Assembly: GCA_001818315.1 (NCBI GenBank)
Contig: MHKF01000012.1
Coordinates: 251,149-315,148 of the forward strand
Length of the DNA: 64,000 bases
From: Candidatus Kerfeldbacteria bacterium RIFCSPLOWO2_02_FULL_42_19
GTDB lineage: Bacteria > Patescibacteriota > Patescibacteriia > HO2-48-17
Direction of reading: 5' to 3'
The position numbers and the translations under genes are program-made. The notes below the pieces were generated by a model that saw only the letters and a program-made list of their open reading frames with translations, was not told where the DNA came from and made no database searches. Shown one piece after another: positions 25,937 to 53,140 of the stretch (within the stretch, counting starts at the first letter, position 1; each line of letters opens with the position of its first letter).

Positions 25937-25940
25937 AGAG

Positions 25941-26018: not shown

Positions 26019-26291
26019 TTCTATGATCAAAATGTATTTTTCACAGGCGAAAGCGCATTCGGCGGCAGTTTCATAAAGGTATTTTTTATTTAGCCATTTT
26101 TTTTATTTTCAACTTGATCATTCCGCGTCAGCTTGCTACGCGGAGGTTCATTTGGAGTAAGTTTGACATTTTCTTTATTTTGTGATATAATTTTATTCCA
26201 AATTCAGGATTGTGAAAGTGCGTCGTGCGCTCTAAGCAATCGCTGAAGGAACCTTAAAAATTCAACAAATGAGCGACCAGCGTTTGTAAAG

Positions 26292-27293
26292 ATGGTCTTT
26301 CGAAACGTCTGGCGCTTCTACAGAAAAAGGGGACAAAGCATGTACTATCTTTGCATTTTTTTAGTGGCAGTCTTCATTGCGTTGATGATTTTCCGGAGGA
26401 ACTGGGATCGGGTGGTGTTCACGGACGCTCACGTTTGGATTTCCGATATCATTGTAGGTGTGGTGGCGGCGGGAGTGTGGTTATTCCTTAATCATCTGAA
26501 TGAGAAGTTCCTGTCGGACTCCGGATGGTGGTGGTTGGTGTATGAAGGTTTCCTCGTGCTTGGGGCGTTTTTCCTACTGCGAGGAACCAGGAAGGTCGTC
26601 CCGCCGTGTAGGAGGTGGCGGGTGTACGGGTTCAACGGCCTCGAGGACCCGGATCTATTGGACGGCCAGAATCTCGTGCCGCCATGGAAGGACGTGTACG
26701 AGGCGGCGGACAACACCGCGGACACCAAATGGGAAATGGTGAAGGGCGAGTGGCAGTGGCGTCGAGATGCCATGCGCTCGACGCTGATCTTGATGGTCCT
26801 TTTCGTTCCAACCTTTCTCCTGCACTGCCTCGTAGAGAACCCGCACTTTCTGGTGGGGGTTTCCTGGGTCAAAACAGGTGCGAGGATTGTGGCCACAGGG
26901 AGCACCACCGTCAGTACGCCTTTCGAGGATTACCTGGAGGAAGAGAAGGCGGTGGAGTACCGGCCATTTTACCCGGAGACCTGCCGCTTCCGGATTGACC
27001 CGCCGGGAAACCCCTCTTTAATTGAGGTTGACATGGTCTTGGAGTCCACTTTGCGGCAAAATCCAGAAGTTTGGACCAGGACGCCGTACACCACGCCGAA
27101 CTTTGGAATTTGGCACCTCCGGAAGCACGAGTTCTATCAGCAGTTCCGGAGGGAGCCGTGGGTTCTCCGGCTGAACCTCAGGCGGGTCGATCAACACGGA
27201 TTTGTTCACAAAACTTACATCCGGTTGATGGTCGACTGTGCGGACCGCGGTCATGGTGCGTCGGGGGCCACTGTAGTATCTGCAGCACCGTGA
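26292..27293 (+). CDS. Hypothetical Trp-rich membrane protein with anomalous GC composition (likely horizontally acquired)
   Basis: Region 26450-27300 is about 58% GC against about 40% elsewhere, with spurious open frames on all strands, typical of high GC. Four N-terminal TM helices. The true start is probably MYYLCIF at 26340. Confidence 0.5.
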   Translation: MVFRNVWRFYRKRGQSMYYLCIFLVAVFIALMIFRRNWDRVVFTDAHVWISDIIVGVVAAGVWLFLNHLNEKFLSDSGWWWLVYEGFLVLGAFFLLRGTRKVVPPCRRWRVYGFNGLEDPDLLDGQNLVPPWKDVYEAADNTADTKWEMVKGEWQWRRDAMRSTLILMVLFVPTFLLHCLVENPHFLVGVSWVKTGARIVATGSTTVSTPFEDYLEEEKAVEYRPFYPETCRFRIDPPGNPSLIEVDMVLESTLRQNPEVWTRTPYTTPNFGIWHLRKHEFYQQFRREPWVLRLNLRRVDQHGFVHKTYIRLMVDCADRGHGASGATVVSAAP

Positions 27294-27457
27294 GTGATGT
27301 CCCTCGATTCTCATACGGCGTCGTAGTGCCCGGCGCCACGATTTTACACCTTCGTTTAGCCCTTTATTAGAACCCTCCAAGCTTTCGAGCGCGGAGGGTT
27401 CTTTGTTTTCTTATAGCACAGTTATCAAAAATGAGTTTCGACAATACACAGATAAGA

Positions 27458-27533
27458 GATAAGAGAGGAGAAGATGATAAGCTTTCGAAGCACTAACACT
27501 GCACTGTGTGCTAAGAAAGGTTATCATCTTCTC
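27458..27533. repeat. Family A hairpin in reverse orientation, 23-bp perfect stem
   Basis: gataagagaggagaagatgataa, a 30-nt loop containing gcactgtgtgctaagaaag (the core in reverse complement), then ttatcatcttctcctctcttatc. Confidence 0.85.
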
Positions 27534-27796
27534 CTCTCTTATCTCGTTTCGATTGTATTGCGCTGCGCCTGTGATTCATCAACTCGTGGTATAATGGGTC
27601 TGTTGCCGAATACCATTTCTGTTGCAATCGTAGCATTTCGGCCAGAATCGCTTCAAAATTTTTCGGCTTATATTCCATATAAACCTCAAAATTTATTCAG
27701 CGATTCTGTCACGAAATTCTACGATTTCACAGGCGAAAGCGCATTCGGCGACAGACCCATAATAGAAATCGATCGTTTACTCTTAAAATTTTCAAC

Positions 27797-30700
27797 ATGC
27801 GTACGAATCTTCCGATACAATTTTCATTTCGCTCGTCCGCTTTTCTTTTGATGCTGACAACTTTCGCATTCCTTCTACCACAGGCGACGGAAGCGAAGTT
27901 TGGCGATGTTGCTACGTACGTCGGTAAAATCATTGGCGGTGACGGCAAAGACAAACTCGAAGCGTATTTGGATCAGCCAAAGGATTTTGCGGTGGACAGC
28001 GCTGGGAATTTTTATATCGCCGACACGATGAACAATGTCGTACGGAAGATTGCAACCGACGGGAAAGTTTCCACGGTTGCGGGCACTGGAGCTTACGGCG
28101 ATACCGACGGCGACACGAATAAAGCACGTTTTGGTTGGCCAGAAGCGATTGCTCTCGATGGCAGTACGATTTTTTTAGCCGATACGGATAACAGCAAAAT
28201 TAAAAAAATTTCCGGCGGTAAAGTGACGACTCTGGTTTCTTCTGGTCTCTCGAAACCCAAAGGATTGTACGCCGACACTGAAAACGACATTTTGTACATT
28301 GCCGATACTGGCAACAATGCTTTGAAAAAAGTGAGTTTCAGTGGCGGAAGTGTGAGTAAAGTCGCTTCCGGTCTTTCCTCGCCAACGAAGATGACGAAAA
28401 ATGGCAGCGCGTTGTACGTTGCGAATACCGGCAATCAACGTATCGTCGCTGTGGATATTACCAACGGAAGCGTGACGACGCTCGCTTCTGGATTCTTGAA
28501 TATTGGCGGTGTGTATTTTTACGATGGCGCGGTGTATGAAGTCGATGGCGATGGACTTTTCGACTTTCTGTACAAAGTAACGCTCGATGGCACAAAAACG
28601 TTGCTTGCCGAAGACGAGCATATGATTACGTTGAATACTTCTTCCGCCATACTCGTTCGTGATGGAAAAATATACGTGCTCAATAGCGGTGGCAGTAGTA
28701 TTTATCGTTTTGATTTGGATGGGCAGAATCCTTTTCACTATGCCGGTAAAGATCGGTTCGGGAATGATAATGGCACGGGTACAGGTGCGCTCATTGGACG
28801 GCCGAAGGGATTGGTGCTTTCACACGACAGAAAATTTTTCTATCTTGCGGAAAATAACAAAATTCGGAAAATCGAACGCACAACGGGTGTTGTGACGTCA
28901 CTCATCGGCAACAGTGTGGATAATTATAAAGAAGGGAGAACGGGTTCAGAAGGTCGTTTTAGCGATATTACTGGGGTCGTGATCAGTCCGGATAACAAGA
29001 CGCTTTATGTCGTTGACCGTAATAATAATCGTATCCGCGGCGTGGATATTGCGACGAAAACTGATTTCCTCATCACTGGCGCGGGTGAGATTAATTCGAC
29101 AAGCGAATCGGATAACGGCTATCAAGAAGGTGCAAAATGTCTTGGAGAATTCAAGGCAGCGGCTGCCGGTTGCGCGTATTTCAATCGTCCTATCGGCATT
29201 GCCATTTCGCTGGATGGCAATTTTCTCTATATTGCGGATACCGGCAATCATCGGATTCGTCGTGTGCGTGTGAGTGATGGAGTGACGACGCTCATTGCTG
29301 GCTCTGGTAAGGCTGGTTTTAAAAACGGCGCCGGAGCTGCCACCGAGTTGAGTAGTCCTATGAGTGTCGCTATTGATCATGACGGAGCGTTTCTGTATGT
29401 CGCTGATAAAGATAATCATGCGATTCGGCGCATACGACTTTCGGATCGTAAAGTCGAGACACTCGCAGGTACTGGAGAGCCGGGTTACAATGACGCAACG
29501 TTTGATAAGACGGTGTTTTCGTTTCCTGAATACGTGACCTTTGGTGGCGATGGACACGTATATGTTTCAGAGGTCGGTGGACAACGCATTCGTCAGCTTG
29601 ATCTTGAGGAAGAAGTCACGAAGCTTGTGGCTGGTTCTGGCATTCGAGGCTTTCGTGATGGCAAAAAAAACGACGCGCAGTTTAATAATCCGAAAGGGCT
29701 CGTCGTTGACGCGCCGGATGATCGTGTGTACGTCGCGGATAATTTTAATGATCTCATTCGCGTGATTGATATTGAAGGCGAAGCGCCTTTTACAGAGCAA
29801 GCTCCCAAAGTTTCGCGCGTGGATCCCAATATGAAGACGGTTCCCGATGGGCCAGAAGTGACGTTATTTGTTTCAGTCACGGGGAGTAATTTTCGTCATG
29901 GCGCTAAAGCGATTTTCGGTACATTTGAGGCCGTCAATACGTATGTTCAGTCGTCTACACAACTTGCTGTTGAGCTTCCCTTTGGATTGATGTTTCCGGG
30001 TTCTTATGATGTCACCGTGCAGAATGTTGATACGCAACAGCACACGCTTCTGAAAGGCTTTCGTGTGGCGAATAAAGATAATACGGTTCCGGATGTGTAT
30101 TTTCGAGCTGATGGCACGGTGACGGGAGGCAGCGCTCCGGCGCCTGCGAAGTCGACATTTTTTCCATATGATTCCACGCTCGTTGGCGGATTTCATCCGT
30201 TGTCGTGCGATCTCACCGGTGATGGAGTCGCTGAGCTTTTAACGGGTCCTGATGTTGGGTTTGGACCGCAGGTTCGCGTATTCCAACAGAATGGAAAGGC
30301 ATTGTTTTCCTTCTTTGCGTATGCAGAAACATTACGCTCTGGTGTGCGCGTTGCCTGCGGCGATCTCACCGGCGATCGTTTTGCGGAAATCGTGACTGCT
30401 CCCGGACCTGGCGGTCGGCCGCATATACGCATTTTTGATCACAAAGGAGTGTTGAAGCATCCCGGATTCTTTGCGCTGGACGGTTTATTTCAGGGAGGTA
30501 CATACGTTGATGTAGGGAACGTGAATGGCGACCGTCGCGGGGATATTATTGTTACGGCGGGGAAAGGCGGCGGCCCGCAGGTGACCGTGCATCGCATGGA
30601 CGGTACGATGCTTGCGAACTTTTTCGCGTATGATAAGAATACGTTTCGCGGTGGAATCCGTTCGGCGGTTTTAGATTTTGACGATGACGGTATTGATGAA

Positions 30701-31072
30701 ATTATTGTTGGACCGGAATTTGGCGCGCCGCACATACAAATGTTCAGTGTCCAGAAAAATAAAGTAAAATTACTGAATCCAGGGTTTTTCGCGTTCAGCA
30801 AGGATTTCTACGGTGGCGTGAGTGTCGCTGGTGGAGATATTGATGGCGACGGTCGTGATGAAATTATTGTTGGGGCAGGGGTTGACGCGACGCCGCTCGT
30901 GCGGGTATTTAATAAAACTGGTTCAAAAATTATCAAAGAATTGTTGGTGTTTGCGGACGGTTTTTTGGGCGGTGTGAATGTTACAGCCGGCGATACTGAC
31001 GGCGATGGGGTCGATGATATTACCGTGATGCCACGGAGTAATAGCGTACCAATGCTTCGTGTTTTGAAGTGA
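27797..31072 (+). CDS. Large secreted NHL-repeat / IPT-TIG / FG-GAP (VCBS) repeat surface protein
   Basis: Signal peptide. About 12 NHL-like blades (LYVADTGNHRIRRV, LYVADKDNHAIRRI). A TIG domain (VSRVDPNMKTVPDGPEVTLFVSVTGSNF). C-terminal FG-GAP repeats (GDLTGDGVAE, GDIDGDGRDEII, GDTDGDGVDDI). Confidence 0.8.
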   Translation: MRTNLPIQFSFRSSAFLLMLTTFAFLLPQATEAKFGDVATYVGKIIGGDGKDKLEAYLDQPKDFAVDSAGNFYIADTMNNVVRKIATDGKVSTVAGTGAYGDTDGDTNKARFGWPEAIALDGSTIFLADTDNSKIKKISGGKVTTLVSSGLSKPKGLYADTENDILYIADTGNNALKKVSFSGGSVSKVASGLSSPTKMTKNGSALYVANTGNQRIVAVDITNGSVTTLASGFLNIGGVYFYDGAVYEVDGDGLFDFLYKVTLDGTKTLLAEDEHMITLNTSSAILVRDGKIYVLNSGGSSIYRFDLDGQNPFHYAGKDRFGNDNGTGTGALIGRPKGLVLSHDRKFFYLAENNKIRKIERTTGVVTSLIGNSVDNYKEGRTGSEGRFSDITGVVISPDNKTLYVVDRNNNRIRGVDIATKTDFLITGAGEINSTSESDNGYQEGAKCLGEFKAAAAGCAYFNRPIGIAISLDGNFLYIADTGNHRIRRVRVSDGVTTLIAGSGKAGFKNGAGAATELSSPMSVAIDHDGAFLYVADKDNHAIRRIRLSDRKVETLAGTGEPGYNDATFDKTVFSFPEYVTFGGDGHVYVSEVGGQRIRQLDLEEEVTKLVAGSGIRGFRDGKKNDAQFNNPKGLVVDAPDDRVYVADNFNDLIRVIDIEGEAPFTEQAPKVSRVDPNMKTVPDGPEVTLFVSVTGSNFRHGAKAIFGTFEAVNTYVQSSTQLAVELPFGLMFPGSYDVTVQNVDTQQHTLLKGFRVANKDNTVPDVYFRADGTVTGGSAPAPAKSTFFPYDSTLVGGFHPLSCDLTGDGVAELLTGPDVGFGPQVRVFQQNGKALFSFFAYAETLRSGVRVACGDLTGDRFAEIVTAPGPGGRPHIRIFDHKGVLKHPGFFALDGLFQGGTYVDVGNVNGDRRGDIIVTAGKGGGPQVTVHRMDGTMLANFFAYDKNTFRGGIRSAVLDFDDDGIDEIIVGPEFGAPHIQMFSVQKNKVKLLNPGFFAFSKDFYGGVSVAGGDIDGDGRDEIIVGAGVDATPLVRVFNKTGSKIIKELLVFADGFLGGVNVTAGDTDGDGVDDITVMPRSNSVPMLRVLK

Positions 31073-31165
31073 CCGACGAGACCGTTGAGTTCGTTTTGTT
31101 GACTGCTTTGGACTTCTTTTTTTATTTTATCTTAGCTATCTTTCTATTTTTTTAATCGAGAGCTA

Positions 31166-31194
31166 TTGACAAATATTTACCGTTGGTTTATAAT
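31166..31194 (+). promoter_or_regulatory. Perfect consensus sigma70 promoter TTGACA-17-TATAAT
   Basis: ttgaca aatatttaccgttggtt tataat, read directly. No ORF with a ribosome-binding site follows. Confidence 0.75.
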
Positions 31195-31200
31195 AGTGGC

Positions 31201-31685
31201 TGTTACGATGAAAGTTCGAGACTGTTCGTTGTTATAATTCAGTGAGGAGAGAGCCGCCACCCGTCGGTTATCGGGTCACATGTTTCTTTATGTCAGGATC
31301 AACGCTGAGGTCTGCGTATGTCCTTATGTGAAGCATGTGTTACTCATCGAATTACAAGGCGATGGGGAGAACTCTTCTCTAGGAAACGAATCTATTTGTA
31401 TTTTAGACAAGATATTTCCCGATCGCCTTTTTTGCTGGCAAGAGACATGGAGAGGAGAGAGTAACATCCATCAAGATAAGGTAAATATTTATTATTTTGA
31501 CCTTTCAACTTGATGCTCTCCATATCTCTCGCTGGCAAAAGCCAGAATAACAGAATTTTCCTCACGTGCGGCTTGGAAAGGAAAATCAAAACCAGACTTC
31601 TCAGTCCAGCAGAAAGAAGGAGATGGAATTACATGGCGTAATTCTTATTTATTTATAAAGGCCCCCTGAGTGAGGGGGCCTTTAT
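31201..31685 (+). ncRNA. Candidate about 480-nt structured noncoding RNA of unknown class
   Basis: It lies between the consensus promoter and a perfect intrinsic terminator. The only ORF is 77 aa, with no SD and implausible composition. Several local helices are visible (GAAUUAC-AUGGC-GUAAUUC, CUGGC-AAAA-GCCAG, AGAGACAUGGAGAG pairing with CUCUCCAUAUCUCU about 55 nt away). No RNase P P4, tmRNA T-arm or SRP domain IV motif was found. Confidence 0.45.
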
Positions 31686-31690
31686 GGTTT
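31657..31690. terminator. Bidirectional intrinsic terminator shared by the ncRNA candidate (+) and the histone-fold gene (-)
   Basis: aaaGGCCCCCTgagtgAGGGGGCCttt, with U-runs on both strands. Confidence 0.8.
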
Positions 31691-31716
31691 TCCGTTGATC
31701 GTGACTATGCAAAGAT

Positions 31717-31893
31717 TTACAGATCGTGAGGTTTTACGGTTGTCCGCTTGTTTCCTTGAGCACGTTTGCAGGCGGCTTCAACCATCTGCATGACTTTTTT
31801 ATTGAGCTCGTCCATAAGCTCGGATGATGTCATGCACTTTTGTGATTTGATGTAGGCTTTGAGTTTGGAGCCTACAATGAGCATGTCACTCAT
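31717..31893 (-). CDS. Bacterial histone-fold DNA-binding protein (DUF1931 / Bdellovibrio Bd0055-like)
   Basis: 58 aa: MSDMLIVGSKLKAYIKSQKCMTSSELMDELNKKVMQMVEAACKRAQGNKRTTVKPHDL. It is colinear with the Bd0055 bacterial histone (xVLVVTSKVKKLIKEK-GQMNTSAETIDVLSKAIEQLCLKAVESAKADGRKTVMARDI), which I am quoting from memory. A TTGCGA-17-TATACT promoter lies upstream. It falls below the 60-aa ORF-track cutoff. Confidence 0.8.
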   Translation of the reverse strand: MSDMLIVGSKLKAYIKSQKCMTSSELMDELNKKVMQMVEAACKRAQGNKRTTVKPHDL

Positions 31894-32005
31894 GTATGCT
31901 TAATTAATGATTATGTGCTTAACAATAAGCAAATTTCGTAAAGGCAGTATAGCAATTTTATCAAATTTTCGCAAATCGAAATTCGTAAACGAAAATCCCG
32001 TTGGT

Positions 32006-32034
32006 GCATTTCAACGGGATTAAGGAGCAGGATG
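32006..32034 (-). terminator. Intrinsic terminator for the ABC transporter gene
   Basis: aatcccgttg-gtgcatttc-aacgggatt, a 10-bp stem followed by a U-run on the minus strand. Confidence 0.7.
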
Positions 32035-32051
32035 TTCAGAACGGATGTAGT

Positions 32052-34004
32052 TTATTGTCGCATCTGTTTGGACCACAGACGGGCATAGATGCCTGTGGTA
32101 TTCAAGAGTTGGCGGTGTGAACCAATTTCGACGAGACGTCCTTCGTGGAACACGAGAATACGATCGAAATTTTGTATTGTTGGTAGTCGGTGGGCTATAG
32201 CGAGCATCGTGCATCGACCTTGTCCTCGAATTTTTTCAATCGCTTGTTGTATGAGCGCTTCGTGTTCCGAATCTACACTGGAAGTAGCTTCATCAAAAAT
32301 GAGCAGCTTCGGTTGACGTGCAATCGCTCGTGCAATGCCAATGAGTTGGCGTTGCCCGCCGGAGAGCAGCATGCCTCGTTCTCCAATGAGCGTGTTATAT
32401 CCATTGGGCAACTTCATAATGAACTCATGTGCTTGCGCAATTTTTGCGGCCGCAATAATTTCGTGCATCGCTTGTTCATGAATATTCTCCGGGTCTATTG
32501 CACTGAAGCACGCAATGTTCTGTGCGATTGTCCGACTAAAGACTTCTACCTCCTGCGGGACGTAACCGATATTTTGTCTCCAATCACTACGTCGTACTGT
32601 TTTTAACGGTTGACCGTTGACAAAAATCGTTCCGTGCTTGGGATCATAGTGACGCAGGAGAAGCTTCACAAACGTCGACTTGCCGCTGCCGGTGAGTCCA
32701 GCAATGCCAATGAATTCGCCAAACTGAATGTTGACATTGACATCGTGTAGCGCACTGGTTCCATTGCTGTGGATCATATCACTACTGACTGCTGGTGTGA
32801 GTTGCTGCGGTGCATCAGTCATTGCAGAGATCGCTTCTTGTGCATGATTGAGTCCATTGTGTGTCGAGCACACGACGAGTCTTTTGCGTGAATTGTATTC
32901 GAAATCCACATCTTCAAATCGGATGAACGATGTTGGATTCGGAACACTCGACAACGGACGAGGATGCGGTAGATCCTCAATCAACGGTGGGGTTTTGAGG
33001 AGGGTTATGAGTCGCTTGATGCCTGTTTCTGCTTCCGCCATTTGCCGACGCACTCGGAAGATGCGATACAAATGAATAAAGTTTTTAATGGAAAGCGTCA
33101 TGCAGAGGTACCATTCTCCAAGCGTGATTCTGCCTGTTACGACGTGGAGACAAATGACGCCTAACACGATGCCGATCGAAACAGCCATACAAAGCCCACG
33201 CACAACATTGTAGCGTATGTACGTCGTGTTGATGTCATACCACAATCGGATTATGTGATTGACTTTTGTTTCAACCCTTTGTTGCACGCGTTCTTGCATC
33301 CCATGCGATTGAATGCTGTTAATATTGAGGGCATTTTCAACCATATCTGATGCCAGCGCTTCTTCATGATCCATTTCTTTTTCATGCATCGGTTTTACGA
33401 CTATTTCCAGTCGCAAGGATAGGTATATGTAAGGAATGATGAGCACGCCGAAGACGGCCATAACCCACCAGTCGTATATGAGGAGCATGACGCTACTGAC
33501 GAGGAGGAGGAATGAGGTGGGGAAGAATTCGTAACACAGGTTGAGGAGAAACATGATCAGGTTATCGATGCCGCGATGTATCTGCTTCATGAGTTCACCT
33601 GAATTGTGTTGTTCGTGGAAGCCGAGTGAAAGATCAAACAGTTTTTGATGCGTCACGATGTACTGATGCCGTGTGCTGTCTGCGATTGTTTTCTTCCAAA
33701 TCTGCCGATCTGCGACGTGATCAATAAGATCAAGTCCGGCGTACAAACCTGTGTAGGCGAGGATGAGCAGTGCGAGATCCCACTGGAGTTGTCTATCGAT
33801 CTGAATGTGTTCGACGTGATTTTTTATGAAGTCGAGGATCTTGCTCAGTAGCCACGGGTCGAGGAGGCGTGCGAGTTGTATGAAGAGCATGAGCATAATG
33901 AGGGTGACGAATGCCTTCTGCACCGGTTTCAAAAGCTCCCAGAGATTTTTTGAGAATACCGAAATTTCTTTCGCGACTTTCGTTAGTTCCAATCTGGACC
34001 GCAT
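32052..34004 (-). CDS. ABC exporter, fused permease/ATPase (MsbA/MdlB-like)
   Basis: Six TM helices followed by Walker A GLTGSGKST, the ABC signature LSGGQRQ, and Walker B LLIFDEATS. Confidence 0.9.
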   Translation of the reverse strand: MRSRLELTKVAKEISVFSKNLWELLKPVQKAFVTLIMLMLFIQLARLLDPWLLSKILDFIKNHVEHIQIDRQLQWDLALLILAYTGLYAGLDLIDHVADRQIWKKTIADSTRHQYIVTHQKLFDLSLGFHEQHNSGELMKQIHRGIDNLIMFLLNLCYEFFPTSFLLLVSSVMLLIYDWWVMAVFGVLIIPYIYLSLRLEIVVKPMHEKEMDHEEALASDMVENALNINSIQSHGMQERVQQRVETKVNHIIRLWYDINTTYIRYNVVRGLCMAVSIGIVLGVICLHVVTGRITLGEWYLCMTLSIKNFIHLYRIFRVRRQMAEAETGIKRLITLLKTPPLIEDLPHPRPLSSVPNPTSFIRFEDVDFEYNSRKRLVVCSTHNGLNHAQEAISAMTDAPQQLTPAVSSDMIHSNGTSALHDVNVNIQFGEFIGIAGLTGSGKSTFVKLLLRHYDPKHGTIFVNGQPLKTVRRSDWRQNIGYVPQEVEVFSRTIAQNIACFSAIDPENIHEQAMHEIIAAAKIAQAHEFIMKLPNGYNTLIGERGMLLSGGQRQLIGIARAIARQPKLLIFDEATSSVDSEHEALIQQAIEKIRGQGRCTMLAIAHRLPTIQNFDRILVFHEGRLVEIGSHRQLLNTTGIYARLWSKQMRQ

Positions 34005-34257
34005 AGTTTTCTCCTTAGTTAGTGCACTTTCGTCATTGCACTGATTGATTGTGATGTCGAAGTACGATCTCTACAAACAAAAATTCTGGCTTGTATGCCA
34101 GAATCTCGGTATCATGTTTTGATTATTTTTATGCATGATTATTCCTCCATATTGTTCTTCGAGATTTTGACATACGAGTATCGCTCCGCGTAAAAATCGG
34201 AGATCCATTGTTTCCAGACGATATATATTGTCGTGCGAGGGTCAACATCACCTTATT

Positions 34258-34305
34258 TTAACTTGATAATTCCGCGCTAGCTTGATGCGCCGGTTTCATT
34301 CTCAG
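34258..34305 (+). repeat. Conserved about 45-nt motif (family C), copy 2 of 3
   Basis: ttttaacttgataattccgcgctagcttgatgcgccggtttcatt. Compare the copies at 26108 and 53088. Confidence 0.7.
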
Positions 34306-34358
34306 AAGAACTTACTCTATCACACCGAATTTTTTTGTCAAATTATGATGAGACTGAT

Positions 34359-34523
34359 GGGCTGTCGCTATAAATACCGTTTCCTGTGCAACGCGCAAAA
34401 GAAAAGAGGAGGAAGACGAGACTTTCTCAGCACACTGTGCAGTTGTTAGTGCTTCGAAAGCTCTTGTCTTCCTCCTCTTTTCTTTATACATGAAATAAGA
34501 AACGGTATTTATGGCGACAGTCC
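34359..34523. repeat. Composite family A element: outer 25-bp inverted-repeat arms plus inner 16-bp-stem hairpin
   Basis: gggctgtcgctataaataccgtttcc pairs with gaaacggtatttatggcgacagtcc. The inner hairpin aaaagaggaggaagac...gtcttcctcctctttt carries the ctcagcacactgtgcag core. Confidence 0.85.
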
Positions 34524-34546
34524 TCTGATTGTCTTTTCGATAATAT

Positions 34547-34780
34547 GTGTATTTTAGTACTGATGATTTTGGTTATGATCCATCTGGAGAGACGACGTCT
34601 GAAGGAGTGTTGTATGCACTTCGTGCTGAGAGTGGAGAACGTGTTTGGAGTTCTGAGGCATTTCAAGGAGTTGGATCGGCTCAAACTTCACCAGCTGTTT
34701 CTAATGGCGTAGTGATTTTTGCCTCTTATGATGATCAGCAGAGAAAGGATCATGGAGTTTTTGCATGTACATCTTTGTAA
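34547..34780 (+). pseudogene. Fragment of a PQQ/BamB-like beta-propeller protein
   Basis: GVLYALRAESGERVWS...SPAVSNGVVIFASYD propeller-blade motifs in a 77-aa ORF that lacks an N-terminal domain. It sits next to the repeat element. Confidence 0.35.
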
Positions 34781-34867
34781 TTTCAACGGTTTTATTTTTT
34801 TGTAATTTTTTTATAAATTGAATTATTTGATATACTATAAGTGTTCATTTTTTTTCGGAGGATTTTT

Positions 34868-35686: not shown

Positions 35687-35690
35687 ACTT

Positions 35691-39699: not shown

Positions 39700-39885
39700 G
39701 GGACTGTCGTTGAATGTGCTTTTGTCTGTGAAAAAGCATTTGCACAAAGTACAAAGAGGAGCAAGACTCTCCTTTCTCAGCACACTGTGCACTGTCAGTG
39801 TTTCGAAAGCGAGAGTCTTGCTCCTCTTTGTACTTTGAATCACATTCATTGACTCACAGACAAAAGCGCATTCAACGACAGTCCC
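39700..39885. repeat. Composite family A element: 31-bp outer inverted-repeat arms plus perfect 27-bp-stem hairpin
   Basis: gggactgtcgttgaatgtgcttttgtctgtga pairs with tcacagacaaaagcgcattcaacgacagtccc. The inner hairpin is caaagtacaaagaggagcaagactctc and its exact reverse complement, with the ctcagcacactgtgcactgtcagtgtttcgaaag core. Confidence 0.9.
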
Positions 39886-39988
39886 ACAATGGTTCAGATT
39901 ATTTTTTACGAAGTTCCTACTGACAAGATCACGTCGTCACGGTATAATAGATTTGCGCGTGTTCGATGAAAATTTCAGAAACAAATAT

Positions 39989-42592: not shown

Positions 42593-42601
42593 TACTTTGC
42601 A

Positions 42602-42838: not shown

Positions 42839-42840
42839 CT

Positions 42841-45985: not shown

Positions 45986-45987
45986 GA

Positions 45988-47160
45988 ATGATGTCGATCC
46001 ATTCTTCGGTGTTTTTGCCGGCGTGGAGCAATTTCGTCACGAAAGATTATTCAGGAATAAGTCTTATGCCTTCAGAATCTCTTAGGCTCAAGGAATCACA
46101 TCCTACTCCATCCCGCAAAAAATCCTCTGATGATGGCGGAAGCGGCGGTATTATCGTTTTTTTCGTTTTTATTTTTCTGATTGTATTCCCAACCGCAACC
46201 TTCGCCTTTTTTATGAAAACGATTTATAACCAACCGCAGAGTGCGACAGGTGGAAGTTTTATTGTTGAAACCGGTGAAGGCGGTGTCGTGATTGCTACGC
46301 ATTTGTACGAGCAGAAATTTGTGAGTAATGCGACGGTATTTAAAGTGTATTTGTGGGTGAGCGGGCTTGGCGAGAAACTTCAAGCAGGTTTGTATCAACT
46401 GCCAGTGCGTGCTTCGATGGTTGATATTGCGCATATCCTGAGTAGCGGCAAAGTTCAGAAGAATGAAGTGCGTGTCACAATTCCTGAAGGAAGTTCCTCG
46501 GTGCGCATTGCAGATATTCTGGCTTCGGACGGCGTAATGCAAAAAGAAGATTTTTTGCAACTCGCTACGGTGAGTGATACACGTACGCTGCTTCCAGATG
46601 CGTATTACAATTTTTTCCAGGATAAGCCCGCTGATCAAGGTTTGGAGGGATATTTTTTTCCTGATACCTATTTCTTCTATCGCGATTCAGAGTCGTCTTT
46701 GATTCTTAAGAAATTCCTTGATACGTTTCAAAAACGAGCAGGAGACCTTCTTGCTTCTGCTCAAGCAAACGGAAAAAATATCCATGAAGTTTTGACGCTC
46801 GCAAGTATTGTGGAAGCAGAAGCACAGCGCAAAGAAGACAAGCGTCTCGTCGCTGGAATATTTTTAAAGCGTCTTGAAATCGGGATGCCATTACAGTCAG
46901 ATGCCACTGTCAATTTTGTTACCGGCAAATCTGCTTTGCAACCCACGAGCGAAGATTTAGCACAAGATTCGTTGTATAATACCTATCAACATGTGGGTTT
47001 GCCGCCGGGCCCCATCAATAATCCTGGTCTTGAGAGTATTGAAGCTGTGTTGCAACCGGAGCTTTCTGATTACTTGTATTTTATCGCTTTACCCGATGTC
47101 GGCGTCATATATGCAAAAACTTTTGAAGAACATAAGCAGAATAAAGAAAAATATTTATGA
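45988..47160 (+). CDS. mltG: Endolytic murein transglycosylase MltG (YceG-like)
   Basis: TM anchor and the YceG motifs (GLYQLPVR, YFFPDTYFF, LASIVEAEA, LQSDATVNFV, LPPGPINNPG). Confidence 0.9.
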   Translation: MMSIHSSVFLPAWSNFVTKDYSGISLMPSESLRLKESHPTPSRKKSSDDGGSGGIIVFFVFIFLIVFPTATFAFFMKTIYNQPQSATGGSFIVETGEGGVVIATHLYEQKFVSNATVFKVYLWVSGLGEKLQAGLYQLPVRASMVDIAHILSSGKVQKNEVRVTIPEGSSSVRIADILASDGVMQKEDFLQLATVSDTRTLLPDAYYNFFQDKPADQGLEGYFFPDTYFFYRDSESSLILKKFLDTFQKRAGDLLASAQANGKNIHEVLTLASIVEAEAQRKEDKRLVAGIFLKRLEIGMPLQSDATVNFVTGKSALQPTSEDLAQDSLYNTYQHVGLPPGPINNPGLESIEAVLQPELSDYLYFIALPDVGVIYAKTFEEHKQNKEKYL

Positions 47161-47849
47161 AGCAGAAAGAAATTATCGTGATTTCACTTGGTGGGTCACT
47201 TATTGTGCCTCAGCAGATTGATATTCGTTTTTTGAAAGATTTTAAATCTTTTATCGAGGCGCAGACTCGGGCTCTAAACGCCCGTTTTTTTATTATTGCC
47301 GGTGGAGGTCGCACGGCGCGTCTTTACCGCGATGCAGCTGCGGCTGTCGCGAAGCTCACGCCTGATGATTTGGATTGGCTTGGAATTCATTCCACTCGTT
47401 TGAATGGACATCTCTTGCGAACAATCTTTCGTCAGGTCGCACATCCGCGAATCATTACCGATCCGTTGCGAGATCCTTTACCGAGGTCTCATGATGTTGT
47501 GATTGCTGCCGGTTGGCGTCCGGGTTGGTCTACGGATTTTGTTGCCACAAAACTTGCTGAGCGTGTTGGCGCTCGGCGACTTTTGAATCTTTCGAATATT
47601 CATGTTGTGCACGATCGGGATCCGAAGCAATACAAAAAAACAAAGCGTTTTTCTCGCATGACATGGTCACAGTTTCGAGCGCTCGTCGGTTCACGTTGGG
47701 ATCCTGGTATGAATACGCCATTTGATCCTGTTGCGTCTCGACTTGCACAAAGACTTGGGTTGGAGGTGATTATTATGTACGGAAAAGATTTTGAAAACGT
47801 GCAACGTTGGTTGGTTGAAAATCGCGGTAAGGGCACGGTCATTGTGTAA
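47157..47849 (+). CDS. pyrH: Amino-acid-kinase-family protein, archaeal-type UMP kinase-like
   Basis: IVISLGGSLIV...FIIAGGGRTAR...VIAAGWRPGWSTD. Confidence 0.7.
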   Translation: MKQKEIIVISLGGSLIVPQQIDIRFLKDFKSFIEAQTRALNARFFIIAGGGRTARLYRDAAAAVAKLTPDDLDWLGIHSTRLNGHLLRTIFRQVAHPRIITDPLRDPLPRSHDVVIAAGWRPGWSTDFVATKLAERVGARRLLNLSNIHVVHDRDPKQYKKTKRFSRMTWSQFRALVGSRWDPGMNTPFDPVASRLAQRLGLEVIIMYGKDFENVQRWLVENRGKGTVIV

Positions 47850-47929
47850 ATTTTCTCATGATACGAGTCCTTTCATTGCATTTTCTAGCAGACTCGCTAT
47901 GATACAAATGAGAATATTTTTGAACCCTT

Positions 47930-48727
47930 ATGCTCTATAAAGAACTCATACAACTTGGACTTTCGGAAAAAGAAGCGAAGGTTTATCTTGCTTCTTTGGA
48001 ATTAGGTAAAGCGACGGTGCAAAAAATCGCGGAAAAGTCAGGCGTGAATCGCGCTACGACGTATTTTATTTTAGAGTCGTTACTCAAGCTTGGACTTGTT
48101 TCGACCTATGATCAGGACAAAAAAACGTATTTTAGCGCAGAGCCGCCGGAACTTTTGATTAATCTTTTAAAAAAACAAGAAGCTGAGATTCACCAAAAGG
48201 CCCGTAACTTTGAAAATATTTTGCCAGAACTGCGTTCCGTTTATAATCTTGCCGAGGATAAACCTCGAGTTCGTTTTTATGAGGGTAAAGATGGATTATT
48301 TGCGATTCAACAGGATTTTTTGCAGACGAATGATCGTAAGATCGAGACCGTTTTTTCACGAGACGATGTTGAAGAAGTTTTTACACAGCAGGAACGTGAG
48401 GAATATCTCAACAAGCGTTTAAATAAACAACTTCATTGTTTTGCTATTTATACACGAAAGGGCGGCTCATTTCTCCCTGATTCCGTGGGTCAAATGATGG
48501 CGGATGCGTATTATATTCCTTCTGATAAGTATCCCATATCATCAGATATCACCATTTATGATGATAAAATTGCCATGGCATCTTTACGCGGGAAATTATC
48601 AGGAGTGATTATTGAAAATAAGGAGATTGCGAATACTTTACGGAGTATTTTTTATCTTGCTCTTGAGACAGCAAAAACTTTTCGGAAAAAGGATTCATCA
48701 TCTGAGACTGATAAAACCCCATCTTAG
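47930..48727 (+). CDS. TrmB-family transcriptional regulator
   Basis: N-terminal wHTH (LGLSEKEAKVYLASLELGKATVQKIAEKSGVNRATTYFILESL), a coiled coil, and the TrmB C-domain. Confidence 0.8.
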   Translation: MLYKELIQLGLSEKEAKVYLASLELGKATVQKIAEKSGVNRATTYFILESLLKLGLVSTYDQDKKTYFSAEPPELLINLLKKQEAEIHQKARNFENILPELRSVYNLAEDKPRVRFYEGKDGLFAIQQDFLQTNDRKIETVFSRDDVEEVFTQQEREEYLNKRLNKQLHCFAIYTRKGGSFLPDSVGQMMADAYYIPSDKYPISSDITIYDDKIAMASLRGKLSGVIIENKEIANTLRSIFYLALETAKTFRKKDSSSETDKTPS

Positions 48728-49224
48728 AAAATTATCAGAAATGAATTGGCGACGCTATCGAAATCGATCGAATGAAGCGTCGCCGTATCTGGTTTTTCCT
48801 TCAGGAAAAATGTTTTTTTTCGGAGCCTCAAAGGATCCGATCTGTAATGTACTATTTTTTTTCGTTTCAGCCCCCCATACCCATATTTTACCTCCTTTGT
48901 TGTTTTTGTTTTTTTGCCCCGTGTGCGGTGCACCGTACATGGAGCAACTCTTGGTTTGGTCGGCCGAATTTTTCAATGACTAGTCCTCCGCAATTCACTT
49001 TCGAGACTAGCTAGTTTCAAATTAACAGCTGTCAAAAATTTTGTCAAGCACATGGTAAACTCACACGAACCTGAGAGTATTTTTTCATTTAACCCTTGTC
49101 TCTTTTTTGAGTTTATTCTTTGTTGAACTCCATTGTATTTATCAATATTTTTGACTTCATCGGTTTTTCTTGATATAAATGAAAGATTCATTCGAGGGCA
49201 TTCAGGCTTTTTCTTCTGAAGTCC

Positions 49225-50061
49225 ATGTCTTTGTTTCACGAACAACTCAAGGGTCTTGATTTTACCGATAAACAAATAGATATCTATCTGTATCTTTTAC
49301 GTGAAGTGCGTGCGTCGGCAAAACAGATTTACGAGTCGTTGCATCTCAATAAAGTCACCGCGTATAAAGTTTTGGATGAACTCGTTGAGATGGATGTGAT
49401 CGGTGTGATCCATGGCGAAGATGCTAAGCTCTATATTTGTAAACCGCCGGACCATCTCTGGAATGTCATTAATCGCAAACTCAAGACCCTGAATGAGCAA
49501 CGCAAGCTTTTGAAAAATGCTATTCCCGAACTTGTCGGTGAATATAATAAACACGCTTCTGCAAAACCACAGATTCGTTTTTACGAAGGCAAGAAAGGCT
49601 TAAGCGCCATTCGGAAGAGTTTTTTGGATGTGGCACAGAAGGAGATTTGTGGCATTTTCTCTGGTGACGATGTAGAACGTGTTTTTTCAGAAGCAGAACG
49701 TGTTTTGTTTTCTACTGAACGAAAAGCTCGTGGTATTCTGAGTCAGAGTATTTATACCCGCAGTCCCGGTCCGTATGCTGCTGCCGACGATCAGGCAATT
49801 CTTGCTCGGACGCATTATATTCGCGGCGAACGATTTCCTATTTTGAGTGACATCAGTATCTATGATAACAAGGTTGCGATTGCATCATTACGTGAACATT
49901 TATGGGGTGTCGTCATTGAAAATCACGCTATTGCCAAGACGCTACGCACGCTTTTTCTTTTAGCAGTTGAGGGCGTTCAGCATTTGCGTAGGTGTCAACA
50001 TCAATCTTCTTTCTCGACAGCGGCAACCCAAAAATCTAAAGTTACTACAAAACAAGTTTGA
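49225..50061 (+). CDS. TrmB-family transcriptional regulator (paralog of 47930..48727)
   Basis: Same architecture (DKQIDIYLYLLREV..., ...RFYEGKKGL..., ...SDISIYDNKVAIASLR...). It aligns along its whole length with the upstream paralog. Confidence 0.8.
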   Translation: MSLFHEQLKGLDFTDKQIDIYLYLLREVRASAKQIYESLHLNKVTAYKVLDELVEMDVIGVIHGEDAKLYICKPPDHLWNVINRKLKTLNEQRKLLKNAIPELVGEYNKHASAKPQIRFYEGKKGLSAIRKSFLDVAQKEICGIFSGDDVERVFSEAERVLFSTERKARGILSQSIYTRSPGPYAAADDQAILARTHYIRGERFPILSDISIYDNKVAIASLREHLWGVVIENHAIAKTLRTLFLLAVEGVQHLRRCQHQSSFSTAATQKSKVTTKQV

Positions 50062-50090
50062 CATATTTTTTGATCTCGGTATAATTCTTT
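50057..50090 (+). promoter_or_regulatory. Promoter (TTGACA-16-TATAAT) and leader of the rplJL operon
   Basis: ttgacatattttttgatctcggtataat, then an about 120-nt leader before rplJ. Confidence 0.55.
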
Positions 50091-50210
50091 TAAGCCGTAG
50101 AATACAGGTGTTCTCGTATTGCTTTTGCAAACCGGAACTTAATTGCCTGTCGAGGTAGATAAGATGATTGGTGTTTTATTTTATTCTGCGGTAGGTAACG
50201 CAGTTTTTTT

Positions 50211-50735
50211 ATGGCTAAAACTCGTACAGAAAAAGAAAATATTGTTCAGTCTTTAGGTAAACTCTTCAAGCAGAACGCAGGGATTGTGTTTGTTGCTTAT
50301 TCCCGAGTTTCGGTAAAGGATATGCTTGCGCTTCGTAGGGCCGTGAAACAGAGTCAATGCGGTGTGTCCGCAGTAAAGAAAACACTACTTACGCGTGCCT
50401 TAGTAATTGCTGGAGATACGTATGATGTCGGCACATTAAACGGTTCTGTCTTTGTGGGCTATGGCAGCGATCAAGTCGCTCTTGCGAAAGTGATCGATCG
50501 ATTTCGCAAAGAGCACGGAGAAAATATAAAGATGCTTGGCGGTATACTTGACCACACAGCGGTTTCGAGCGAGCAGATCATGTCACTTGCTCAACTTCCT
50601 TCACGAATGGAACTGACGGCACAATTCGTTGGAACTCTTGCAGCTCCGATTGTTGGGTTTGCACGAGTATTATCGGGAACAATGCAAAGTTTTGTGTACG
50701 CCCTGTCTGCTTTGCAGAAGAAAAAGGCTTTATGA
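50211..50735 (+). CDS. rplJ: 50S ribosomal protein L10
   Basis: KTRTEKENIVQSLGKLFKQNAGIVFVAYSRVSVKDMLALRRAV. Confidence 0.9.
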   Translation: MAKTRTEKENIVQSLGKLFKQNAGIVFVAYSRVSVKDMLALRRAVKQSQCGVSAVKKTLLTRALVIAGDTYDVGTLNGSVFVGYGSDQVALAKVIDRFRKEHGENIKMLGGILDHTAVSSEQIMSLAQLPSRMELTAQFVGTLAAPIVGFARVLSGTMQSFVYALSALQKKKAL

Positions 50736-50836
50736 AGTGCGTGTAGTGAGGGGTTTTGACCTTTGTTTCTTTCCTTGAGACTTATTGCAACGTGAAAGAA
50801 GCATAGGTGAAAACTTTTATCATTAACGTGTATTAT

Positions 50837-51277
50837 ATGTCAGACAGTGCGCAAACGAAGGATACTTCGAATGCAACAGAGGCAGTTATTGTGCCTGAAA
50901 AATTTGCTTCATTAGTTGAGTCTATTGAAAAAATGAGTGTGCTTGATCTCGCCGAACTTGTGAAGTTGCTTGAGAAGAAATTTGGTGTCTCGGCAAGCGC
51001 ACCGATGATGGTCGCGCCAGCAGCAGGTGGTGCGTCCGGTGATGGAGCATCGCAAGAAGAAGAGAAAGATTCATTTAACGTTGAACTTGCTGAAGTTGGT
51101 GCTCAAAAGATTGCCGTTATTAAAGTTGTGCGTGAAATCACCGGTAAGGGCTTGAAAGAGGTAAAGGATATTGTTGAAGCTGCACCGAAAGTAATCAAAG
51201 AAGGCGCTAAGAAAGAAGAAGCTGAGGAATTAAAGAAAAAGCTCGAAGCAGCTGGTGCAAAAGTGAATTTGAAGTAA
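50837..51277 (+). CDS. rplL: 50S ribosomal protein L7/L12
   Basis: N-terminal dimerisation domain, an Ala/Gly hinge, and the C-terminal domain ([53 protein letters not shown]). Confidence 0.9.
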
Positions 51278-51402
51278 TTTTTGTTCGTTGGTGTATAAAG
51301 TGAGAGGGGGAGGATGATATTTTTGGAGCACACTGTGCATTCTTAGTGCTCTGAAAATATCCGCTGCCACCTCTCTTTTATTTTTTCAATATTGCATTTC
51401 CT

Positions 51403-53079
51403 TTAAAGGATCTCCTGCTGATAGCAGGGATTGCAGAAAATTTTTTCCGGACGCTCGGGAGCATATGTCGTTTCGAATTCCGTGGGACAGCGATTTTCGC
51501 TATGTTCTGAATGTTTGAGATCGCACTGACATTGACGGTGATAGAGTTGCAGCGGGTAATGACGCTTCCACCGCTTTTGAAAACGGCAAGCGGGACACAG
51601 GAGTGGAAGCGGTAAGTGCAGCAGTTTCAGCAGTTTCAATTCAATACTTTGGATGCGATAATTTTTTTTGCATTCAACGCAGGCGAGGATTTTTTCGAGA
51701 ATTATTTCTGCAACTTTTTCAATCTGTGAGTGGATGTCGGTAGCCCGCAACGTTTCTTTTCCATACAAACCTGCGGATTCATCCTGCCAGCGCCAACCTC
51801 GTACAAGCACTTTTTTCTTTGTCAGAGGAAAATAATCCTGCGACATCGTTTCGTTGTAGGTATGAGGACTATATTGTACTGGAAGAAATTCTCCCCATTC
51901 ACCGTCGTCGCGCATTTTGTTAATAATCTTTTTCCGCAGATCGTGATATTTCGTCTCTGAATACTGTTGATTGAGAATGCAAAATCGTTTTCCGCGGAGA
52001 CCCACGCATCCAAAGAGGTGATCCGAATTTTCACAAAAGAAGCAATACGCGATGAACATGCAGTCAGGACTCGTGTAAGAACAGGCGGCGCTGTTGAATC
52101 GAATCCCAGAATTTACTTCGTAACTGTTTTGTGAACCTAGAGTATGGTTCACGCGATAACAGTCCTTTGTTTTGAGCATGCGGAAACATTCACCGCAATT
52201 TTCATTTTCTATCATGTTAAAGCCCAAACGGATGTTTTTTGAAGATTCGATTGCCTCGCCGACGACGTTTTCGCTCTTTCGAATGATCGCGAATTCAACG
52301 GGAAACTTCAGAGAGTGTTGCGCAAAACGTTTTCGGTGTTCTTCGAAACTCTCGCGGTTTTTAAGTGCTTCCGTAAGACGCTTTCGGTATTCCACTTCAG
52401 GCAGCGACTCGTTAAACCAGTAAAATTTTTTGTGTTTGAGATTCACGCATCCGAAACAATTCTGACAGTCAGTAAGGTCACGGCCAAGGTAACATTCGTT
52501 GCAGTTATAAGCTCGTGTGAGGAAGGCGGAGCGATAGGAATAATATGTATAAACGCAATCATAAACGAGTTCACTGTGATACACTTGTAATCCATCCGCA
52601 CAGTCTTTTGACCAGTCTATGTTGCGGGAATATACAATGTTTTCAAGTTCTAAACCGCTGAATACAAGATAACAGTCCTTGCCGTCGAGGACGTAATTGA
52701 CGTATTCTGAATTGACGTTTTCTCCTGGTTGCCAGAGATTATAGTGTGGCACATGTGTGAGTAGTTGGTGGAGTTGTTCGAAAAATGGTTTTTGCGGATC
52801 ATATGTTTGCGCATATTTCATCGGATCCCATTGGTCAGAATACCAACATGGTCGGCAATATACGTGCGCGTATGAAGCGGGCGAATACATTGCAATGATA
52901 TTTTTTTTACACAATTCGCATTGACGACGATAGAGTGATGCTTCGTTGCGATATGTCATCCGACGCCGGTGAGCATCGGTCGCGCACAGTGTTGGTTCCG
53001 GAAGTTCAAGCGCGTTGAGTATTTTTTTGTCCTCAGTAGCAATACTGAAAGAAGTTTTGCATTCACGACACGTAGGCAT
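51403..53079 (-). CDS. Cysteine-rich protein of unrecognised family, paralog B (556 aa)
   Basis: About 40 Cys, mostly in CxxC pairs: CRECK, CELCKK, CRPCW, CNECYLGRDLTDCQNCFGC, CGEC, CVEC..CPACR, QCQC and CNPC. It has no signal peptide. It aligns along its whole length with 53188..54858. Confidence 0.6.
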   Translation of the reverse strand: MPTCRECKTSFSIATEDKKILNALELPEPTLCATDAHRRRMTYRNEASLYRRQCELCKKNIIAMYSPASYAHVYCRPCWYSDQWDPMKYAQTYDPQKPFFEQLHQLLTHVPHYNLWQPGENVNSEYVNYVLDGKDCYLVFSGLELENIVYSRNIDWSKDCADGLQVYHSELVYDCVYTYYSYRSAFLTRAYNCNECYLGRDLTDCQNCFGCVNLKHKKFYWFNESLPEVEYRKRLTEALKNRESFEEHRKRFAQHSLKFPVEFAIIRKSENVVGEAIESSKNIRLGFNMIENENCGECFRMLKTKDCYRVNHTLGSQNSYEVNSGIRFNSAACSYTSPDCMFIAYCFFCENSDHLFGCVGLRGKRFCILNQQYSETKYHDLRKKIINKMRDDGEWGEFLPVQYSPHTYNETMSQDYFPLTKKKVLVRGWRWQDESAGLYGKETLRATDIHSQIEKVAEIILEKILACVECKKNYRIQSIELKLLKLLHLPLPLLCPACRFQKRWKRHYPLQLYHRQCQCDLKHSEHSENRCPTEFETTYAPERPEKIFCNPCYQQEIL

Positions 53080-53087
53080 ATTATGAG

Positions 53088-53140
53088 TTTTTAACTTGAT
53101 AATTCCGCGTCAGCTTGCTGCGCGGAGATTCATTCGAGTT
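53088..53140 (+). repeat. Conserved about 45-nt motif (family C), copy 3 of 3, in the spacer between the two Cys-rich paralogs
   Basis: ttttaacttgataattccgcgtcagcttgctgcgcggagattcatt, with the internal hairpin tccgcg...cgcgga. Confidence 0.7.

Follow-up and report, generated by a model that had tools for sequence, protein, structure and literature searches.

The 64,000-nt window analysed here (positions 251,149 to 315,148 of contig MHKF01000012.1, assembly GCA_001818315.1, from Candidatus Kerfeldbacteria bacterium RIFCSPLOWO2_02_FULL_42_19) contains a short repeated motif, designated family C, for which three copies in one orientation were described in an initial annotation. The genes beside the copies are those that had been indicated. 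Copy 1 ends 139 nt upstream of an open reading frame (ORF) on the plus strand (26292-27293). Copy 2 lies 254 nt upstream of the minus-strand gene for an ABC exporter (32052-34004), with a hairpin of a second repeat family, family A, about 100 nt away. Copy 3 lies between the genes for two Cys-rich paralogous proteins, and its flanking hexamer is 10 nt upstream of the ATG (at 53079) of one of them, a minus-strand gene. The N-terminus of this paralog (MPTCRECK..., encoded at 51403-53079) looks genuine, and copy 3 is therefore present as its reverse complement in the leader of that gene, about 10 nt from the ATG.

All three copies were recovered on the plus strand, at 26108-26152, 34257-34300 and 53090-53134 (Table 1). 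A 42-nt consensus allowing up to three mismatches matched 26111-26152 and 53093-53134 and gave no match in 100 dinucleotide-preserving shuffles; copy 2 has several substitutions and lacks 1 nt, and it therefore misses this threshold. A covariance model (R1) was trained on nine single-hairpin copies, three from the window and six from elsewhere. When run over the whole window with filters off, it scored the window copies at 77.2 bits (copy 3), 73.7 bits and 58.4 bits (copy 2), with E-values of 6e-13, 3e-12 and 3e-9. These scores are partly high by construction since all three copies are in the training alignment, and the informative result is that the same search gave no further strong match in the window. 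The window copies differ among themselves by 7-15%. The imperfect TCCGCG...CGCGGA hairpin that had been noted in the motif is real. Folded as single-stranded DNA it reaches -8.9 kcal/mol in copy 3 (z = -2.8), where it has 9 bp, a bulged T and a CTTG loop, and -7.8 kcal/mol in copy 1 (z = -2.65), which keeps the lower stem but has a weakened upper stem. In copy 2 the hairpin is degraded (-5.2 kcal/mol, z = -1.1, not significant). The run of T residues said to precede each copy requires qualification, as it is in part the TT of a conserved flanking hexamer, TTNAAC.

A fourth, decayed copy was added by a repeat search. Its parts follow one another as a hexamer-like TTTACA, TTGATCATT, CCGC, an unrelated loop of 13 nt, GCGGGAG, an insert of 7 nt and TCATT, and it ends 2 nt before the ATG (6525) of an HtrA-like gene. 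Its R1 score alone is not significant (E about 6) and its fold is no better than that of shuffles, so that its membership rests on the left flank. A candidate fifth copy at 49148-49195 was rejected. This sequence has no hairpin, is promoter-like (TTGACT, a 17-nt spacer and TATAAA, then AGATTCATTCGAG, upstream of a TrmB-family gene at 49225) and gives an R1 E-value of 7.5. The 13-mer AGATTCATTCGAG also occurs at the right end of copy 3, where it runs into the flank; the match is not improbable after multiple testing and was judged a probable coincidence. Beyond the two edges of the window, about 17 kb of sequence yielded no further copy.

Table 1. Coordinates of the family C copies and of associated features (window positions unless a locus is named)
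Feature	Position	Strand	Remarks
Copy 1, flanking target hexamer	26108-26113	+	TTCAAC at the left cleavage-site position, consensus TTNAAC
Copy 1, single-hairpin element, 39 nt	26114-26152	+	TTGATCATT flank, hairpin at 26123-26143, AGGTTCATT
Copy 2, flanking target hexamer	34257-34262	+	TTTAAC; variable base T pairs with guide base A
Copy 2, single-hairpin element, 38 nt	34263-34300	+	Hairpin CCGCGCTAGCTTGATGCGCCGG degraded, 1 nt deleted from the 3' arm
Copy 3, flanking target hexamer	53090-53095	+	TTTAAC; variable base T pairs with guide base A
Copy 3, single-hairpin element, 39 nt, best preserved	53096-53134	+	TTGATAATT, hairpin at 53105-53125, AGATTCATT
Copy 4, decayed relative	6472-6522	+	Repeat search; exact 13-mer TTGATCATTCCGC in common with copy 1
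Full-length parent element	L030 1266-1800	-	Also in L020, L023, L033 and L035
Consensus sigma-70-type promoter	26163-26191	+	TTGACA, 17-nt spacer, TATAAT, with TG; 12/12 hexamer positions
Repeat family A	6198-6303, 25941-26024, 27455-27535, 34402-34487, 39732-39837, 51300-51380		Repeat search
Repeat family B	6311-6342, 6360-6385, 6395-6418, 26041-26076, 27596-27625, 27727-27760, 39700-39732, 39854-39887; L016 7553-7618

The parent insertion sequence

The identity of family C became apparent from its occurrence elsewhere (loci outside the window are given L numbers). When metagenomes were scanned with the motif core, 29 loci were obtained, of which 23 are genuine; a scan of a genome collection returned five matches, three of which are genuine elements of the Candidate Phyla Radiation (CPR). 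The motif is nearly unchanged in about 26 unrelated contigs, which include Saccharibacteria, Parcubacteria and Sungiibacteriota metagenome-assembled genomes (MAGs) and many groundwater metagenome contigs; many of the contigs break off shortly after it, as a repeat present in multiple copies would lead one to expect. Past ...CGCGG the sequences fall into two classes. One continues with AG-N-TTCATT, as in the window, and the other with TTACC... and then an ORF that starts with MRAVRTTEHNAYQIHYHFVTPVKYRK 56 nt from TTGAT. This ORF, tnpA, follows the 5' part of the motif at +56 in L020, L023, L030, L033 and L035. It encodes a 146-aa protein that matches Pfam Y1_Tnp (7e-36) and NCBIfam transpos_IS200 (131.6 bits, cutoff 55); the NCBIfam model REP_Tyr_transpos (RAYT) gives 35.5 bits, under its cutoff of 80. 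The closest solved structure is that of the ISDra2 TnpA (2xm3). The protein is a Y1 (HUH) transposase, TnpA, of the IS200/IS605 family.

From TTGAT to TCATT the parent element measures 535 nt, made up of a 55-nt left end, the 441-nt tnpA (+56 to +496) and a 39-nt right end. The left end consists of TTGAT-W-ATT, an imperfect hairpin and TTACC... (in L030 TTGATTATT-CCGCGTCAGCTTGCTGCGCGG-TTACC...), and the right end of TGATA, a hairpin and AG-N-TTCATT (in L030 cTGATA-CCGCGTCAGCTTGCTGCGCGG-AGATTCATT). As both ends in L030 contain CCGCGTCAGCTTGCTGCGCGG, one 21-nt hairpin is present at both ends in direct orientation. The element terminates in ...TGATACCGCGTCAGCTTGCTGCGCGGAGATTCATT, which is the 3' part of the motif. 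In L055, L065 and L066 the stop codon TGA of tnpA overlaps the right-end guide TGATA. Identical full-length elements with different flanks were seen in L007, L017/L020, L029 and L030, that is at four sites, each after TTAAAC. Among the plasmid-borne TnpA proteins searched, none exceeds 50% identity to that of the parent, and the motif was not found in the plasmid collection. The parent is a new and unusually compact member of the IS200 group, and it circulates in the CPR (Patescibacteria) and in other uncultured bacteria, the unrelated metagenome contigs that contain it coming mostly from the CPR.

The window copies correspond to both ends of this element at once. Window positions 53088-53125, in copy 3, are identical at 38 of 38 positions to the left end in L033, and positions 53102-53134 are identical at 32 of 33 to the right end in L030 and L020. 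These two matches overlap within the hairpin, and family C therefore has the structure left flank, one hairpin, right flank. Copy 1 shows 92% identity over 38 nt to the left ends of L003, L017, L020 and L033; with the right ends of L020 and L030 its identity is 91%, across 33-34 nt. Its TTGATCATT is the left-end flank with the guide triplet TCA and its AGGTTCATT is the right-end flank with the cut site. Copy 2 resembles the copies in L028. The right-end type of left flank, TGATACCGC, is absent from the whole window. One suggestion of the initial annotation, that the motif is the terminal module of a mobile element, has thus been borne out, the motif being the left end of an IS200/IS605-family element fused to its right end. 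No tnpA was found in the 64-kb window by tblastn, and the window copies are therefore derivatives and not autonomous members of the family.

Forms between the parent and the window copies also occur. Copies of 125-160 nt with both hairpins and no tnpA, similar to the elements known as PATEs (palindrome-associated transposable elements), are present in L001, L024, L027 and L031, and single-hairpin copies of the window architecture (solos) in L002, L013, L016, L018, L021, L034 and L028. The two solos in L028 (6259-6306 and 7249-7296) resemble copy 2 and lie 990 nt apart, each before one of three tandem paralogous genes for membrane proteins of ~275 aa; this pair was copied by gene duplication and not by transposition. 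In a more distant element the right end has a full hairpin, CCGCGCGGCTTGCCGCGCGG, in L064 (about 920-955) and is collapsed to CCGCGCGG in L057 (about 3448-3470). This deletion inside the palindrome is another decay route of the ends.

The sites occupied by the family are closely defined. At 28 independent sites the six bases before TTGAT read T-T-N-A-A-C, the fixed positions being conserved at 28, 27, 28, 28 and 26 of the sites. Upstream of the hexamer there is a weak preference for T only, and at the same 28 sites nothing is conserved 3' of TCATT and no target-site duplication is seen. Insertion occurs 3' of TTNAAC and the hexamer is kept on the left flank. In 21 of 26 independent insertions the variable target base N is the complement of W, the base that follows TTGAT (permutation mean 10.8, P<1e-5), T being combined with A 13 times, A with T seven times and G with C once. 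A more distant relative with the guide TCA contributes two further G-C cases, both of its sites being TTGAAC. At the left end a guide triplet T-W-A, and at the right end a guide triplet TGA, is found 2 nt 5' of the foot of the hairpin. Each is antiparallel-complementary to a triplet located 2 nt 5' of the respective cut, which is T-N-A on the left side and TCA on the right. In IS608 the cleavage sites CL and CR are known to pair with guides GL and GR (PMC5934647). The covariation suggests that the target of the new element may likewise be chosen by pairing with the guide next to the hairpin foot, in a geometry deduced from IS608 and ISDra2. At the right end the base before TGATA and the base before TCATT show no Watson-Crick pattern. 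Copy 1 breaks the guide rule, with C as the variable target base opposite a guide base C, and the rule is broken more often in solos (3/10) than in full elements (0/7).

The hairpins themselves vary in a manner that retains pairing. Compensatory changes are seen in the upper stem of intact elements (CAG/CTG, CTG/CAG and CGG/CCG), and the right end in L027 has an entirely different stem in which pairing is kept. The end hairpins of insertion-sequence and PATE-like copies mostly have free energies of -6 to -12 kcal/mol, the left end in L027 being at -3.9, and those of solos range from -2.7 to -7.1 kcal/mol and are on average weaker. Four of the four window copies are on the plus strand. GC skew is positive in all 16 of the 4-kb bins of the window, and the plus strand is therefore leading-strand sequence, equivalent to the lagging-strand template. 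The active strand of all four copies would thus be on the lagging-strand template, where it has also been reported to lie in IS608 and ISDra2 (PMC6006769); at n = 4 the result agrees with the family without being strong.

Origin of the single-hairpin copies

That family C is derived from the ends of an insertion sequence is, in our view, almost certain. We also consider it likely that the whole history is one of deletion, in which the copies are 'solo ends' of an IS200-group element that lost its interior between the two hairpins and left neutral scars. The parent would enter TTNAAC sites as single-stranded DNA on the lagging-strand template ('peel and paste'), with the site chosen by pairing of the target triplet T-N-A with the guide triplet T-W-A 2 nt 5' of the hairpin foot. 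The interior, including tnpA, would then be lost by recombination or replication slippage between the directly repeated hairpins, and the product would be a left flank, one hairpin and a right flank, 38-39 nt in all. Neutral decay would follow, in the order copy 3, copy 1, copy 2, copy 4. The state of the copies forms such a gradient: copy 3, which follows the guide rule, is intact, the upper stem is weak in copy 1 and the C-C combination is present there, copy 2 has a degraded stem, and copy 4 has a foreign loop and an insert. The scars most likely lack a dedicated host function. Side effects are possible, in that copy 3 places a stable hairpin in the leader of the Cys-rich paralog (~10 nt from the start) and copy 1 lies near a -35 box.

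Several points weigh against this account. No empty orthologous site was found at close evolutionary distance, the syntenic loci L036-L038 being too diverged to serve as such, and for this reason the insertion boundaries in the source genome and the deletion route are features that we infer. The absence of tnpA covers the 64-kb window, and a parent with tnpA may be present elsewhere in the genome. The geometry of guide and target would hold only by analogy with IS608 and ISDra2. Transposition of the solos as such could also produce their uniform architecture, which is found in at least 10 lineages, and the lack of decay in copy 3 could reflect either recency or constraint.

The alternatives were weighed against the same observations. 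Chance similarity or low-complexity sequence as the source of the three copies can be practically dismissed, since beyond the AT-rich upstream context nothing speaks for it, whereas no match was obtained in 100 shuffles, the covariance E-values are 1e-9 to 1e-13 (with a model built partly from the window copies) and copy 3 is identical at 38 of 38 positions to sequences from other organisms. That the host has co-opted the motif, either as the operator of a regulator of the winged-helix or TrmB type or in the form of a leader RNA hairpin controlling the neighbouring genes, is highly improbable. It would fit with the finding that all copies are intergenic and near gene starts or promoters (copy 1 is 10 nt before a -35 box, copy 3 ~10 nt from a start and copy 4 2 nt from an ATG), although an intergenic location is expected of any tolerated insertion. 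Copies 1 and 3 are fixed in the population, being identical in every covering locus of 12 from ten further samples, and a precedent exists in the free-standing IS605 stem-loops conserved beside lipoprotein genes in Borrelia (PMC2775950). However, two of the four hairpins are degraded, the neighbouring genes are functionally unrelated and the position and orientation of the copies relative to them are inconsistent. Relatives at 62-65% Lgt identity lack the motif in the syntenic spacer between lgt and an NHL-repeat gene and nearby, and in unrelated phyla this sequence forms the end of a transposon. The operator for a common regulator that was proposed in the initial annotation is likewise unsupported, because distances and orientations relative to genes are inconsistent, and the same sequence flanks a transposase gene in unrelated organisms. 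A promoter-associated small RNA, also proposed there, finds no favour in the predictions: at the gathering score Rfam 15 has no family that matches the motif, either in the window or in the 20 related loci searched, no intrinsic terminator is predicted after the hairpin on either strand, and no promoter is predicted upstream of any copy. With an E-value limit of 10, an Rfam search around copy 1 gave only chance-level matches over the copy (E 0.8-1.7, far below gathering scores); the stronger ones all fell on the neighbouring family A hairpin and came from generic long-hairpin models. Reading the motif itself as a promoter was rejected, as its TTGATA has no acceptable -10 box at the right spacing and the only strong promoter is downstream of copy 1; a reading as a terminator was rejected for want of a U-run after the hairpin on either strand.

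The main alternative, also unlikely, is that the single-hairpin unit of ~39 nt is itself active and is mobilised in trans by an IS200-type TnpA in the manner of repetitive extragenic palindromic (REP) sequences. Solos retain the cleavage contexts TTNAAC (5') and TCATT (3') and a guide region with the TGA and T-W-A triplets, the same architecture recurs in at least 10 lineages as mentioned, and N/W complementarity is kept in 7/10 solos; even so, the guide rule is broken more often in solos than in full elements, and the IS608/ISDra2 mechanism requires two hairpins, one per TnpA monomer (PMC5934647). Copy 1 and the solo in L016 have subfamily variants in common (TTGATC and CTACGCGG) at non-orthologous sites, both in organisms with repeat family B. 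The window solos nevertheless form a decay series with 7-15% difference, in contrast to the identity seen among active full-length copies from metagenomes. No solo was seen in identical form at two sites (the L028 pair having been duplicated with its gene), and the roughly 17 kb past the window holds no extra copy. That the 39-nt unit is a still-mobile minimal transposon, with both cleavage sites and guide triplets around a single predicted TnpA-binding hairpin, is accordingly something that we regard as rather improbable. If true, it would be the smallest DNA transposon known and a living intermediate between IS200 ends and REP sequences spreading in reduced CPR genomes.

Genomic setting and neighbouring repeats

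The surroundings of copy 1 differ from those in related organisms. Between lgt and the NHL-repeat gene there is a spacer of 200 nt in L036 (65% Lgt identity), against 1.86 kb (25937-27796) in the window. The window segment contains repeats of families A and B, copy 1, the promoter at 26163-26191, the orphan ORF of 333 aa at 26292-27293 with its terminator, and further A and B repeats, and it looks like a lineage-specific inserted cassette. The ORF has no Pfam match. The -35 box of the promoter is about 10 nt past the end of copy 1, and the promoter is a neighbour of the element and not part of it. The syntenic relatives L036-L038 are without families A and B as well as C, the lgt-NHL spacer included. 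The closest named homologues of Lgt are from Uhrbacteria, Parcubacteria and Patescibacteria. Exact protein matches were found in a Rifle-aquifer MAG (GCA_001818335.1, contig MHKG01000013.1, which covers copy 3) and in many sample assemblies.

Family A is a near-perfect palindromic hairpin of ~85 nt, AAGAGGAGGAAGAC...CAGCACACTGTGCA...GTCTTCCTCCTCTT, with T-rich tails on both sides. It is usually located just after genes, like a bidirectional terminator, and in Rfam it matches generic long-hairpin models only, below thresholds. Family B (GGGTCTGTCGCCGAATACGCTTTCGTCTGTGA) occurs in both orientations. [quoted passage not shown] Family B is also present in L016 together with the solo resembling copy 1, and the organism of L016 therefore appears to be related to that of the window. 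Comparison of L016 and L028 with the window by tblastx gave matches to repeats only and no synteny.

Upstream of copy 3, two TrmB-family (PF01978) genes occupy 47930-50061 and precede an L10 leader (50077-50218; Rfam RF00557, 51.5 bits) and rplJ-rplL. The genes rpoB and rpoC do not follow rplL; in their place are the two Cys-rich paralogs, convergent to rplL. These are 52% identical to each other, contain CxxC repeats and have no Pfam match. Three Logan contigs (L048, L049 and L050), from three independent assemblies, start in the loop of the copy 3 hairpin, with position 1 at window position 53119. The element therefore disrupts short-read assembly, and solos in general can break such assemblies and can pass for operators in motif screens.

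Relation to known elements

The IS200 group comprises elements with tnpA only, such as IS200 and IS1541, with IS608 and ISDra2 serving as models of the mechanism. Classical IS200 is about 700 nt long, longer than the 535-nt parent described here. The distance from the left cleavage site TTNAAC to the hairpin foot is 9 nt in the parent, and in IS608 it is much greater, at roughly 19 nt. In other respects the agreement with the IS200/IS605 family is close. The related full-length elements encode a Y1/HUH TnpA, their subterminal imperfect hairpins are in direct orientation and are not terminal inverted repeats, insertion is 3' of a short specific sequence with no duplication, a guide beside the hairpin foot would pair with the cleavage site, and the active strand, as judged from the four window copies, would lie on the lagging-strand template. 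The window copies differ in that they have no tnpA and one hairpin each. A very compact IS200-group element is widespread in the CPR and in other uncultured bacteria, and its insertions form a natural covariation data set that backs the guide/target pairing rule for a new target, TTNAAC. In the window itself, a candidate regulatory motif or small RNA is replaced by the annotation of four IS200-family relics in a CPR genome.

Among the non-autonomous derivatives, the PATEs, which are MITE-like derivatives of IS200/IS605 elements, also keep the ends of the insertion sequence without tnpA. They retain separate left-end and right-end hairpins (PMC7290912), whereas in family C one hairpin is common to the left and right flanks. 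REP sequences and their RAYT transposases provide a second point of comparison, as REPs, like family C, consist of a short hairpin (~35-40 nt) in intergenic DNA, have a guide-like conserved sequence on the 5' side and are related to IS200/IS605 ends. In contrast to these, the transposase associated with family C is of the IS200 type (131.6 bits) and is below the RAYT cutoff (35.5 vs 80), and the window copies have no GTAG, form no inverted REPIN or BIME pairs and number four in 64 kb, in one orientation. The IS605 stem-loops of Borrelia plasmids are similar in that hairpins from insertion-sequence ends persist in intergenic positions without a transposase gene, some of them beside genes. The free-standing stem-loops in Borrelia are isolated left or right loops whose adjacent flanks have been lost (Delihas 2009, PMC2775950), whereas family C retains both flanks around one hairpin. 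A literature search found no published description of the fused single-hairpin form, which is weak evidence of absence.

The recurrent fusion of left and right ends around a single hairpin may represent one way in which such elements come to an end; less likely, it is a minimal mobile unit of the REP kind. By analogy only, family C can be compared with solo long terminal repeats (LTRs), in which a single terminal repeat remains after recombination between direct terminal repeats, although the class of element and the enzymology are unrelated and the repeat in family C is only about 21 nt. Family C is thus a real feature with an ordinary explanation, and its architecture is a new variant within an element type that is already known.

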